From assembly GCF_965641715.1 (NCBI RefSeq), contig NZ_OZ282453.1: DNA of 64,000 bases; one strand, given 5' to 3'. The stretch is from Escherichia coli (GTDB lineage: Bacteria > Pseudomonadota > Gammaproteobacteria > Enterobacterales > Enterobacteriaceae). A program made the position numbers. This document shows positions 59,401 to 62,400 of this stretch, one piece after another. Positions within the stretch are counted from its first letter, which is position 1; every line of letters starts with the position of its first letter.

Positions 59401-62400
59401 GCGCAGTACGCAGCGGTACAGCGACGACCGTTACCGCAAGCGTAATAATCACGCCGCTGACAACGACTTTTGGCAGGGTGCGAAACCAACCCGCTCGCGC
59501 CAGCCAACCGGCGACCAGGCCGATGACTATCGCGACGGGTGCAAATGCGGCGGCGATCGGGTCGGTCAGCAATCCCCAGAGTAAATTGGTCAGTAAGCCG
59601 GTCAGCATTCCGATCACCGGACCAAGCAGTACCGCGCTAATAAGTGTGCCGATGGAGTCGAGAAATATAGGTAATTTGACCATGCTGGCCAGTTGCCCGC
59701 CGATCATATTGATGGCGATAGATATAACGATCAACACCAGTGCCTGACTGGAAAAGTGGCTACGCGCCATAAGAAAACCTCTCTGAAAGTAGTTATTTAA
59801 CGGGGGAAATATGCAACTCGTCGTAACCAGAAAGCGCGCAAGGTTGGCGGCTAAACGCCAGTTCCTCAAGGCTACCGATCACCAGTTCAAGCGTGGTCCG
59901 CACGGTACAGCCGGGCATCATATGACCGCCAAGCATCGTGCCGTGTGGATCGGAAACGCAGAGATGAAGATGCTCACCACTCTGTTCCAACGTGCCGTTT
60001 AGTGAGATCACTTCGAATGTACCGTTCAGGAGCGTGGTGCCTTCTTGCCCGGCATAGCGCAAGGCGATGTCAGTCAGGCTACCGGTACAGCCTGCAATCC
60101 AGGCGGCATGAAGTTGCTGCTGCTGTGCAAAAGCGTGTAGCTGGGAAAAAACTTCCTGCCCGGGGAGGAGGCGCAGTGCGTAAAAGCGTGCGGAGGAAGA
60201 ATATGGGTAGGGCAATGTCATCATTGGAGTACTCCGAAACTCGGACGTATTGCGGATAATATCGACGCTGCATCAGTCATATTCTGATATAAGTCAGGGT
60301 TTGTGACGGCACAACGAAAAGATTTTGCTACGCTTATTCGTGATTCTGCAAAGTGGAATAAATTCCACAGGGGCGGGGCTGAAAACGTGACGTAAGTCAG
60401 ATAATTGTTTTCTTTGACTGGACAATCATTCCTTTTATTCCACGTTTCGCTTATCCTAGCTGAAGCGTTTCAGTCGATTAAATGTTCGACAATTAACCAA
60501 TCAGTCGCAGTTTGCGACAGGTAAGGTTTCCCCGGACGATTTGCTGGATTACTCTGTCTGGAAAATTTGCTCAGGGAAAACCTTGCAGGAGATCTATGAC
60601 CGTACGCGTAGCGATAAATGGCTTCGGTCGCATCGGGCGTAATGTGGTTCGTGCTTTGTATGAAACCGGACGCCGGGCGGAAATTACCGTGGTGGCAATC
60701 AACGAACTGGCGGATGCTGCGGGCATGGCGCATTTGTTGAAATATGACACCAGCCATGGCCGTTTTGCATGGGAAGTACGACAGGAACGCGATCAACTTT
60801 TTGTTGGTGATGACGCCATCCGCGTATTGCATGAACGTTCACTGCAATCGCTCCCCTGGCGTGAACTTGGCGTTGATGTAGTCCTCGACTGCACCGGCGT
60901 ATATGGCTCCCGCGAGCATGGCGAAGCGCATATTGCCGCCGGGGCCAAAAAAGTGCTCTTTTCACATCCTGGCAGTAACGATCTCGACGCGACCGTTGTT
61001 TACGGCGTCAATCAGGATCAACTTCGTGCGGAACACCGCATCGTTTCTAACGCTTCCTGTACCACGAATTGCATAATTCCCGTCATCAAATTGTTAGATG
61101 ATGCGTACGGTATTGAGTCCGGTACTGTGACCACAATTCACTCCGCCATGCACGATCAACAGGTTATTGATGCATACCATCCTGACCTGCGTCGCACCCG
61201 GGCAGCCAGCCAGTCGATCATTCCGGTCGATACTAAACTGGCCGCCGGTATCACACGATTTTTTCCGCAATTTAACGATCGCTTTGAAGCGATTGCGGTA
61301 CGTGTGCCAACCATAAATGTGACGGCAATCGATTTAAGCGTGACGGTGAAGAAACCTGTAAAAGCCAATGAAGTCAACCTGTTGCTGCAAAAAGCAGCAC
61401 AAGGTGCATTTCATGGTATAGTTGACTATACGGAATTGCCGTTGGTCTCTGTAGATTTTAACCACGATCCGCACAGTGCCATTGTCGATGGCACCCAAAC
61501 CCGGGTCAGTGGCGCACACCTGATCAAAACGTTGGTCTGGTGCGATAACGAATGGGGCTTTGCTAACCGAATGCTCGACACGACGTTAGCTATGGCTACT
61601 GTTGCTTTCAGGTAAGACGCAAGCAGCGTCTGCAAAACTTTTAGAATCAACGAGAGGATTCACCATGTCTGTAATTAAGATGACCGATCTGGATCTTGCT
61701 GGGAAACGTGTATTTATCCGTGCGGATCTGAACGTACCAGTAAAAGACGGGAAAGTAACCAGCGACGCGCGTATCCGTGCTTCTCTGCCGACCATCGAAC
61801 TGGCCCTGAAACAAGGCGCAAAAGTGATGGTAACTTCCCACCTGGGTCGTCCTACCGAAGGCGAGTACAACGAAGAATTCTCTCTGCTGCCGGTTGTTAA
61901 CTACCTGAAAGACAAACTGTCTAACCCGGTTCGTCTGGTTAAAGATTACCTCGACGGCGTTGACGTTGCTGAAGGTGAACTGGTTGTTCTGGAAAACGTT
62001 CGCTTCAACAAAGGCGAGAAGAAAGACGACGAAACCCTGTCCAAAAAATACGCTGCACTGTGTGACGTGTTCGTAATGGACGCATTCGGTACTGCTCACC
62101 GCGCGCAGGCTTCTACTCACGGTATCGGTAAATTCGCTGACGTTGCGTGCGCAGGCCCGCTGCTGGCAGCTGAACTGGACGCGCTGGGTAAAGCACTGAA
62201 AGAACCTGCTCGCCCGATGGTGGCTATCGTTGGTGGTTCTAAAGTATCTACCAAACTGACCGTTCTGGACTCCCTGTCTAAAATCGCTGACCAGCTGATT
62301 GTTGGTGGTGGTATCGCTAACACCTTTATCGCGGCACAAGGCCACGATGTGGGTAAATCCCTGTACGAAGCTGACCTGGTTGACGAAGCTAAACGTCTGC

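Follow-up and report, generated by a model that had tools for sequence, protein, structure and literature searches.

The 371 bp between the first gene on the minus strand (ATG at 60224) and epd (ATG at 60596) are a common divergent regulatory region, which serves the epd-pgk-fbaA operon on the plus strand and the operon of lmiA and an ECF transporter on the minus strand. All positions (60225-60595 for this region) refer to the window, i.e. the whole 64-kb stretch of E. coli DNA that was analysed. A divergent control region of about 370 bp had been proposed by the first-pass annotation, in agreement with the length measured here. Most of the control elements in this region are already known. 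What is new is a modest prediction, namely a class II promoter of the FNR type; to judge from its conservation, this predicted promoter, and not the PhoP site, would be the best-conserved control element of the lmiA operon. The first-pass annotation had missed the strongly conserved FNR-type site, and also the published lmiA promoter with its PhoP site and the CRP site. In the overall explanation, Cra and CRP act at epd, a palindrome is read as a half-element, an FNR-type promoter drives lmiA, and no riboswitch takes part; we hold this explanation as a whole to be likely. The FNR-type promoter, the overlap of PhoP and CRP sites and the origin of the island go beyond the literature read, and none of them is surprising in kind.

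Genes and O-island 119

60596-61615, plus strand: epd (erythrose-4-phosphate dehydrogenase), coding sequence, as annotated in homologous records
59793-60224, minus strand: lmiA (Z4267/ECs3799), PCC/DUF296 protein (Pfam PF03479, E=3.5e-28), gene 1 of a five-gene operon
59192-59770, minus strand: ECF S component in O-island 119 (domain match)
58484-59191, minus strand: ECF T component in O-island 119 (domain match)
57819-58496 and 57148-57825, minus strand: two ATPases in O-island 119 (domain matches)
57108-60374, minus strand: O-island 119 of EHEC O157:H7 (the "islet"), 3267 bp, delimited by BLAST against the K-12-type locus

The left border of the region had been described as the start of an ECF operon. 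The operon does contain ECF genes, but its first gene codes for the PCC/DUF296 protein LmiA, which is no ECF component. LmiA is homologous to PDB entry 2HX0; the gene name was taken from the literature, where LmiA is described as activating the LEE pathogenicity island and the gad acid-resistance genes in EHEC. The control of lmiA therefore matters for virulence regulation.

The size of O-island 119 in the window equals the published size of 3267 bp. According to BLAST against the K-12-type locus, K-12 has no counterpart of this DNA, and from position 60375 rightwards the K-12 sequence has 99% identity to that of the window. The sequence of O157 Sakai differs from the window in 2 of the 371 nucleotides. 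In E. albertii, the intergenic region is 98.7% identical, compared to 90.0% for lmiA and 95.2% for epd. The lmiA operon was found at the same genomic place in at least 13 genera. It is therefore probable that the absence of O-island 119 from K-12 is due to a loss, and not to a gain by EHEC.

The epd promoter is controlled by Cra and CRP

60459-60473 (GCTGAAGCGTTTCAG) or, at full motif length, 60459-60474 (GCTGAAGCGTTTCAGT), plus strand: Cra (FruR) operator of epd P0, spanning -5 to +10 of the epd start
60452-60464, plus strand: core of epd P0, with the -10 hexamer TATCCT (60452-60457) and the start (60464), mapped from the published promoter
60386-60401: CRP site of epd P0, cGTGAcgtaagTCAga (K-12: tGTGAtgtgagTCAga), class I, centred at -70.5 (alignment)

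A Cra-like box had been noted about 90 bp from the palindrome and assigned to epd-pgk-fbaA. This box, 91 bp to the right of the palindrome, is indeed the Cra operator that has been published for epd-pgk-fbaA. GCTGAAGCGTTTCAGT matches the Cra motif gcTGAAtCGaTTCAgc in 13 of 16 positions, which include all high-information positions; TGAA, the central CG and TTCA are intact. The core TGAANCGNTTCA has one exact occurrence in the 64 kb (0.13 expected). The box is nearly invariant in an alignment of 17 Enterobacteriaceae loci from 13 genera, and the DNA is identical in K-12, the organism of the Cra literature. Both the published promoter sequence ACATTCCTTTTATTCCACGTTTCGCTTATCCTAGCTGAA and its start at -132 from the ATG (Bardey et al. 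2005, as cited in PMC2759082) could be placed exactly in the window; the start (60464) falls inside the Cra box. In Cra ChIP-exo experiments at epd, the -10 region and the start site were covered and CRP lay upstream in a class I position (Kim et al. 2018, PMC5888115).

The operator lies over the -10 hexamer and the start, so bound Cra blocks RNA polymerase. CRP at the class I site, the core of which (GTGA-N6-TCA) is invariant in the 17 aligned loci, activates P0. This is textbook central-carbon regulation, to which the present analysis adds nothing new.

The mapped promoter of lmiA and its PhoP site

60314-60351, minus strand: lmiA promoter P1, with -35 TTGCAG (60351-60346), -10 TAGCAAAAT (60330-60322) and start (60314) (PMC7667037)
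60378-60396, minus strand: PhoP DNase I footprint CTTACGTCACGTTTTCAGC, -82 to -64 of the lmiA start (published in PMC7667037, exact match)

Primer extension placed the start of lmiA 90 nt before the ATG (Liu et al. 2020, mBio, PMC7667037). The published -35, -10, start and PhoP footprint all occur verbatim in the window, with the expected relative coordinates. A simple promoter/terminator scan of 60150-60650 gave no match; both published promoters are weak matches and were missed. In a DNA pull-down with the lmiA promoter, PhoP was the only protein reported (PMC7667037). The PhoP footprint and the epd CRP site have 11 bp in common. It is therefore plausible that the two divergent promoters share one piece of DNA and compete for it.

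A predicted FNR-type promoter closer to lmiA

60284-60297: CRP/FNR-family-type site, read on the lmiA strand as CTGACTTATATCAG, genus consensus CTGAT-N4-ATCAG (alignment)
60256-60261, minus strand: predicted -10 hexamer TATTAT of a second promoter, P2, with the predicted start at about 60248/60249 (alignment)

The conserved control of the islet operon probably lies closer to lmiA than the palindrome does, namely at a CRP/FNR-family site near -41.5 of the predicted promoter P2. In 15 of 16 taxa, a TATnAT hexamer follows downstream of this site at a distance of exactly 22 bp. With a start predicted 7 nt after the hexamer, this gap places the site at about -41.5/-42.5. Mean conservation is 0.89 for the site and 0.53 for the spacer. 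In the hexamer, T1, A2, A5 and T6 are 100% conserved among the 16 taxa and position 4 is variable; 6-8 nt further downstream follows the invariant block ACGTCCGAG. Compared to the FNR consensus TTGATnnnnATCAA, the site matches in 8 of 10 positions in most genera and in 7 of 10 in the E. coli window, with an intact TGA/TCA core. Its outer bases are C/G, and thus neither the T/A of FNR nor the G/C of CRP. Buttiauxella, in which the operon does not adjoin epd, retains the site; Serratia lacks it. Relative to the start at 60314, the sole mapped start of lmiA, the site is at +17 to +30.

Two further exact matches to TGAT-N4-ATCA were found in the window (0.92 expected), one in coding sequence at 5081 and one upstream of yggM at 29255. 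They were judged to be unrelated, and the pair could be due to chance.

In FNR-activated promoters, the site is found at about -41.5, and partial matches to the consensus are tolerated and common (Myers et al. 2013, PMC3688515). In O157 Sakai, ECs3799, ECs3800 and ECs3802 are 5- to 8-fold up (log2 2.3-2.9) on oxygen limitation. They rise together with pflB, narK, nirB, nikA and yfiD, and fall once oxygen returns and glucose is exhausted. Furthermore, anaerobic activation has been described for the operon in Salmonella, where it groups with genes that FNR activates; STM3070-72 are not listed in the supplements of two SalCom papers. K-12 ChIP-seq data cannot cover the site because K-12 does not possess the island.

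FNR would most likely activate P2 under oxygen limitation. That lmiA and the ECF transporter are driven by this predicted, conserved class II promoter is reasonably probable, and more so than control by a palindromic operator. If it is true, oxygen limitation joins magnesium as an input of lmiA, and the LmiA-dependent control of LEE and acid resistance is tied to oxygen limitation.

The lmiA leader contains no riboswitch

60231-60248, minus strand: invariant block ACGTCCGAG-(1-3 nt)-TCGGAGT, found in all loci that have the operon, Serratia and Buttiauxella included

ECF transporters are often under riboswitch control in Firmicutes. This background, the conserved blocks in the leader and the mapped 5' UTR of 90 nt (PMC7667037) would fit an RNA element. 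The invariant block forms a TCCGA/TCGGA inverted repeat, contains the Shine-Dalgarno sequence GGAG of lmiA, and begins at the predicted start of P2. Against an RNA element, a search of Rfam with 59700-61000 on both strands returned nothing at E<=10. RNAalifold, applied to the alignment, yielded a covariation term of +0.56 and compensatory changes in 0 of 26 pairs, and the folding z-score is -0.53. Moreover, the conserved positions form blocks at fixed spacings, as is typical of protein-binding DNA. The control region contains no riboswitch, in line with the first-pass annotation, which had seen no hallmarks of one in the ECF leader. It is extremely improbable that a riboswitch or structured RNA explains the conserved blocks.

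The palindrome is probably a mirrored half-element

60353-60368: inverted repeat GTGGAATAAATTCCAC (GTGGAAT-AA-ATTCCAC), single occurrence in the window
60355-60361: GGAATAA, the sole part of the palindrome that is conserved across genera (17-locus alignment)

The repeat had been described as a perfect 16-bp palindrome. Its 7-bp arms are indeed perfect, but the central AA is not self-complementary, which makes it a 7-2-7 inverted repeat. It occupies -54 to -39 of the lmiA start and -111 to -96 of the epd start, and lies within O-island 119, 6 bp from the right end of the island. The window holds 42 perfect inverted repeats with arms of at least 7 bp and spacers of 0-4 nt, compared to 21.7 +/- 5.4 after dinucleotide shuffling. 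Of the shuffled versions of the 372-bp region, 11.5% contain one or more such repeats, so that by itself the palindrome does not stand out statistically. Allowing for up to 2 mismatches, 5 palindrome-like matches were found in the window (2.7 expected), which is no clear excess over chance. A literature search for the palindrome sequence yielded no relevant paper.

The palindrome is identical in O157 Sakai and in four divergent E. coli genomes, and no E. coli in the sample deviates from it. Across genera, only GGAATAA is conserved: ATAA is invariant and GGA is at least 90% conserved in the 17 aligned loci. On the lmiA strand this motif reads TTATTCC and lies directly upstream of the -35 of lmiA. 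In Serratia and Buttiauxella, whose operon has a neighbour other than epd, the DNA upstream of the operon lacks the motif. The right arm is missing in Silvania, Leclercia, Klebsiella, Salmonella, Citrobacter, Kluyvera, Superficieibacter, Atlantibacter, Trabulsiella and Enterobacter. Even two species of Escherichia, E. albertii (GTGaAAT...) and E. whittamii (...ATTCCAa), have a broken dyad, and neither shows a compensatory change. In a dyadic operator, both half-sites should be conserved or co-vary in orthologous regions; here, the second arm is restricted to Escherichia. The proposal of the first-pass annotation that the palindrome is an operator thus largely fails by the standard of conservation or covariation that it had set itself, and a conserved half-element remains.

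The half proximal to the -35, TTTATTCCA with the core GGAATAA, is an old conserved intergenic element, and the distal arm arose within the genus Escherichia. Since only the proximal half is old and the changes in the dyad are uncompensated, the palindrome is probably a promoter-flanking half-element that is mirrored in E. coli, and not the conserved operator of a dimeric regulator.

Several known sites were compared with the palindrome. By inspection, GTG-N10-CAC is 2 bp too long for a CRP site (GTGA-N6-TCAC). As an UP element of P1, the palindrome matches the UP consensus poorly, and this reading was set aside. Comparisons by eye with consensus sequences, which are leads only, gave no fit for RcsB, the NarL 7-2-7 site, ArgR, Fur or PhoP; the same applies to the LmiA motif TTAAAGTCGTTTGTTAA, also compared by eye as a lead. 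The geometry TGGAA-N5-TTCCA of IclR/AllR-type operators differs from the TGGAA-N4-TTCCA of the palindrome. A genomic SELEX peak of FlhDC listed "at epd" is inside yggC, away from the palindrome.

Alternatively, the palindrome could be a real, Escherichia-specific operator of a dimeric regulator (IclR/AllR-like or another winged-helix protein) that switches lmiA and possibly epd. It would sit at -46.5 of P1, between PhoP and RNA polymerase; this position, adjoining the mapped -35, is plausible for an activator or a repressor. The IclR (TGGAAATNATTTCCA) and AllR (KTTGGAAWAWTWTTCCAAC) motifs have the same half-sites, TGGAA/TTCCA. In Escherichia, the -35 (TTCCAG to TTGCAG) and the -10 (CAAGAT/CAATAT to CAAAAT) are also shifted towards consensus. 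Within this genus, the intergenic region is unusually conserved, above the flanking genes, so a lineage-specific function of the palindrome is conceivable. The identity of the 7-bp arms in O157 Sakai, the window and the four divergent E. coli lineages would fit as well, but with about 99% identity over the whole region, nothing can be concluded from conservation within E. coli. The centre of 4 nt instead of 5 nt, the broken dyads of E. albertii and E. whittamii, the single copy in the window, the frequency of comparable repeats in shuffles and the pull-down that reported PhoP alone (PMC7667037) all argue against such an operator, which we regard as unlikely. In a more specific form, the operator would have arisen de novo in Escherichia by mirroring the ancestral half-element, with IclR-like half-sites at 4-nt spacing, and would gate the control of LmiA, and perhaps of epd, by PhoP and CRP; this is quite unlikely.

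A further possibility is a role in the native control of epd for both GGAATAA and the palindrome; for the palindrome, this had also been considered in the first-pass annotation. In that case, they would make up a site upstream of epd at about -104/-106, which is three helical turns further out than the CRP site. It would serve one more activator, or an architecture that depends on the alpha subunit of RNA polymerase and CRP. GGAATAA is present in all 17 loci adjacent to epd, including the islet-less K-12 type, and is missing from two or three loci whose operon is not beside epd. To within 1 bp, it keeps the same distance to the CRP core across an intervening sequence that is not conserved, and the 10-mer TTTATTCCAC recurs in inverted orientation in the spacer of the epd promoter (60434-60443). 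However, the K-12 type has arisen recently within the species, and its breakpoint abuts the motif, so retention of the motif there says little; one K-12-type genome has GTAATAA. The literature consulted on the epd promoter names only Cra and CRP, apart from the FlhDC peak within yggC. The position of GGAATAA directly next to the -35 of lmiA explains its conservation equally well. A role in native epd control is very unlikely, and the mirrored half-element remains the preferred reading of the palindrome.

Comparison with known systems

The epd promoter agrees with K-12 epd P0 (RegulonDB) in the Cra sequence, in its place over the -10 and start, and in the upstream CRP site. Islet-bearing strains differ from K-12 in nothing of substance: their left CRP half-site is cGTGA instead of tGTGA, and beyond about -90 their upstream sequence belongs to the island. 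In relation to the published lmiA promoter (PMC7667037), the palindrome occupies the gap between the PhoP footprint and the -35; neither the palindrome nor epd, CRP or FNR is mentioned by Liu et al. 2020.

Like the operators of IclR (TGGAAATNATTTCCA) and AllR (KTTGGAAWAWTWTTCCAAC) (PMC8222616), the palindrome has TGGAA/TTCCA around a centre of A/T only, but this centre comprises 4 nt, compared to 5 nt in those operators. Unlike them, the palindrome is accompanied neither by a tandem second site 19-21 bp away nor by a nearby IclR-family gene, and its dyad is not conserved beyond Escherichia.

The predicted promoter P2 differs from the class II FNR promoters of nikA, nirB, narG, dmsA and yfiD (PMC3688515) in that its start is predicted and its site is CTGAT...ATCAG instead of TTGAT...ATCAA. 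It shares with them TGA-N6-TCA at about -41.5, a TATnAT -10 and the lack of a good -35. Furthermore, the genes of the lmiA operon belong to the same oxygen-limitation expression cluster.

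The region between epd and lmiA

The intergenic region of 371 bp (60225-60595) separates the start of a minus-strand gene (60224) from the ATG of epd (60596). Four more genes follow it on the minus strand; they code for the S component (related to the CD3073 family) and the T component of an ECF transporter and for two ATPases. The same arrangement occurs in 3329 of the 5425 complete E. coli genomes matching the region; in the others, which are K-12-like, yggC is joined straight to epd. According to BLAST, positions 57108-60374 have no counterpart in the K-12-type locus. At 3267 bp, this stretch has exactly the length published for O-island 119 of EHEC O157:H7, with which the islet is therefore identified. 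The O157 Sakai locus tags are ECs3799-ECs3803 for the five genes and ECs3798 for epd; its intergenic region differs from that of the window at 2 of 371 positions. The islet operon begins with lmiA (Z4267), which the literature describes as activated by PhoP and as regulating LEE and gad genes.

By means of primer extension and footprinting, Liu et al. 2020 (PMC7667037) traced lmiA transcription (promoter P1) to a start 90 nt before the ATG, with a -35 box TTGCAG, a -10 box TAGCAAAAT and, at -82 to -64, a stretch CTTACGTCACGTTTTCAGC that PhoP protects from DNase I. All four features were found in the window, their relative coordinates exactly as published. The epd start, published from 5'-RACE as 132 nt upstream of the ATG (promoter sequence ...CGCTTATCCTAGCTGAA), maps to 60464, and its -10 box to 60452-60457.

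Features of the divergent promoter region
59793-60224, minus: PCC/DUF296 protein gene (lmiA), first of five minus-strand genes
60314, minus: lmiA P1 start, mapped from the published feature
60330..60322, minus: lmiA P1 -10, matching the published string
60351..60346, minus: lmiA P1 -35, matching the published string
60378-60396, minus: PhoP footprint, matching the published string
60386-60401: CRP core GTGA-N6-TCA, centred at -70.5 of the epd start

Published start sites of both sides thus fall here, as expected from the divergent control region claimed in the first-pass annotation; the whole region is a divergent promoter region already characterised experimentally. The lmiA paper of Liu et al. 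2020 (PMC7667037) mentions neither the palindrome nor epd, CRP or FNR. What is added here is mainly a predicted FNR-type promoter and an overlap of the PhoP and CRP sites.

Within the islet, window positions 59192-59770 are homologous to Salmonella STM3072, for which a sigma-54 ChIP-chip study (PMC3844500) lists the intragenic RpoN-binding sequence TGGCCCATTGAATGCATC.

Cra, CRP and PhoP

The Cra core TGAANCGNTTCA occurs once in the window (0.13 copies expected). The Cra box GCTGAAGCGTTTCAG at 60459-60473, 91 bp to the right of the palindrome, agrees with the Cra motif gcTGAAtCGaTTCAgc in 13 of 16 positions and covers -5 to +10 of the epd start. Published ChIP-exo data place Cra over the epd -10 and start site, and CRP upstream in a class I position. 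An alignment of 17 loci (13 genera) shows no variation in the CRP core and next to none in the Cra box and -10. The earlier assignment of a Cra-like box to epd-pgk-fbaA is correct and was already known.

The PhoP footprint, whose proposed PhoP box matches its consensus weakly, shares 11 bp with the class I CRP site of the epd promoter P0. PhoP and CRP may compete, or a single site may serve both promoters.

The 132-nt epd leader (60464-60595) contains small conserved hairpins, GTCGA...TCGAC and GTCGC...GCGAC. Its fold has compensatory changes in 4 of 30 predicted pairs among 13 taxa (covariation term -0.23), and this 5' UTR has no Rfam match. By eye, no riboswitch hallmarks had been seen in the ECF leader, and we agree: Rfam gave no match at E<=10 on either strand of 59700-61000, the alignment fold had 0 compensatory pairs and a positive covariation term, and the single-sequence fold was not better than shuffles (z = -0.53).

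The palindrome

The sequence GTGGAATAAATTCCAC is present as described, once in the window (60353-60368), but it is not a fully perfect 16-bp palindrome, since two 7-bp arms surround AA. Inverted repeats with arms of at least 7 and spacers of 0-4 number 42 in the window versus 21.7 +/- 5.4 in shuffles. As 11.5% of shuffles of the intergenic region contain such a repeat, the palindrome alone is not beyond chance. From the mapped P1 features it follows that it occupies -54 to -39 of the lmiA start, between PhoP footprint and -35; relative to the epd start it lies at -111 to -96.

The operon is divergent from epd in E. albertii, E. whittamii, Silvania, Leclercia, Klebsiella, Salmonella enterica, S. 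bongori, Citrobacter koseri, C. freundii, Kluyvera, Superficieibacter, Atlantibacter, Trabulsiella and Enterobacter; in Serratia and Buttiauxella it is located elsewhere in the genome. In the 17-sequence alignment, GGAATAA (60355-60361) is the only conserved part of the palindrome, and it is absent in Serratia and Buttiauxella. Outside Escherichia, every genus compared has unrelated sequence in place of the arm ATTCCAC, and most have a direct repeat TGGAATATGGAATAAA instead. Even within Escherichia the dyad is broken without compensation (E. albertii, GTGaAAT...; E. whittamii and Escherichia sp. E1V33, ...ATTCCAa). It is intact in four divergent E. coli genomes, along with almost the entire intergenic region, which is conserved above the level of the flanking genes. 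The comparison thus does not support the proposed operator. A lineage-specific operator appears unlikely; the palindrome's half-sites TGGAA/TTCCA resemble those of IclR/AllR operators (PMC8222616), whose centre however has 5 nt instead of 4. We rather read the palindrome as a putative ancestral promoter-flanking half-element, mirrored in Escherichia. A literature search found no paper containing its sequence.

Related sequences occur nearby. The 10-mer TTTATTCCAC in the epd promoter spacer (60434-60443) is the exact reverse complement of GTGGAATAAA, the left part of the palindrome (60353-60362); their distances from the intervening CRP site are unequal. Directly after the yggC stop, the K-12-type yggC-epd spacer (locus L002, 3938-3990) carries a 10-bp inverted repeat TTTATTCCAG-(27 nt)-CTGGAATAAA, the second copy being homologous to the conserved half; it may be a deletion scar or a hairpin. 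The K-12-type genome L039 has the core GTAATAA. Past the ansB terminator and upstream of yggM (29254-29284), CTGATGATAATCAC runs straight into the palindrome CGGAATAAATTATTCCG. The motif types TGAT-N4-ATCA and GGAATAA are common to this site and the lmiA-epd region; their spacing to any -10 differs, and the likeness may be coincidence.

Origin of O-island 119

A recent acquisition of O-island 119 by EHEC has been suggested. In at least 13 enterobacterial genera the operon is found at this site, likewise divergent from epd, and its G+C content of 53-58% is not anomalous; loss in K-12-type E. coli is therefore likelier than horizontal gain by EHEC. Moreover, the two E. coli haplotypes diverge gradually along the 3' half of yggC towards the island (identity 94% to 47%). 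Gene position, G+C and this gradient do not favour recent acquisition; they favour an old polymorphism, with loss of the operon in the K-12-type lineage.

Within E. coli, lmiA alleles are strongly divergent, with about 88% DNA identity; over their first 125 nt they diverge by about 11% (window against loci L006 and L034-L037). The intergenic region beside divergent alleles is 98-99.5% identical. For E. albertii the values are 98.7% (intergenic) versus 90.0% (lmiA).

A predicted second lmiA promoter

Downstream of the P1 start, three elements precede lmiA.

60297..60284, minus: CRP/FNR-family-type dyad CTGAT-N4-ATCAG, reading CTGACTTATATCAG in the window; nearly all taxa
60261..60256, minus: hexamer TATnAT, TATTAT in the window; nearly all taxa
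60248..60231, minus: invariant block ACGTCCGAG(1-3 nt)TCGGAGT, containing the lmiA Shine-Dalgarno GGAG

Dyad and hexamer are exactly 22 bp apart in 15 of 16 taxa, conservation is 0.53 in the spacer versus 0.89 in the dyad site, and hexamer positions 1, 2, 5 and 6 are conserved to 100%. Buttiauxella, where the neighbour is cmtB instead of epd, retains the arrangement. The dyad lies at +17 to +30 of the mapped P1 start; its TGA-N6-TCA is at -41.5/-42.5 of a predicted start 60248/9 (P2). In 19 of 23 published FNR-activated promoters the site is at -41.5 +/- 4.

In O157 Sakai, ECs3799, ECs3800 and ECs3802 rise by log2 2.3-2.9 once oxygen is limiting, in a cluster with pflB, narK, yfiD, hyp and nrdDG, and drop at the transition where oxygen is recovered and glucose exhausted. 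For the Salmonella operon, anaerobic activation has been described, and it clusters with FNR-activated genes. These independent expression data agree better with FNR than with CRP at the dyad. It is moderately likely that lmiA possesses a second promoter of class II, probably FNR-activated. No mention of it was found in the lmiA literature.

The invariant block starts where P2 is predicted to start. Every occurrence of the operon has this block, and in Serratia and Buttiauxella noackiae 100-150 nt separate it from the start codon. It may form a hairpin or serve as a protein site.

The architecture of dyad and TATnAT before lmiA is that of class II promoters of the CRP/FNR family. Published FNR sites are TTGATnnnnATCAA-like and frequently partial matches; the E. 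coli copy of the dyad reaches 7/10. FNR sites have outer T/A, whereas the lmiA dyad has outer C/G.
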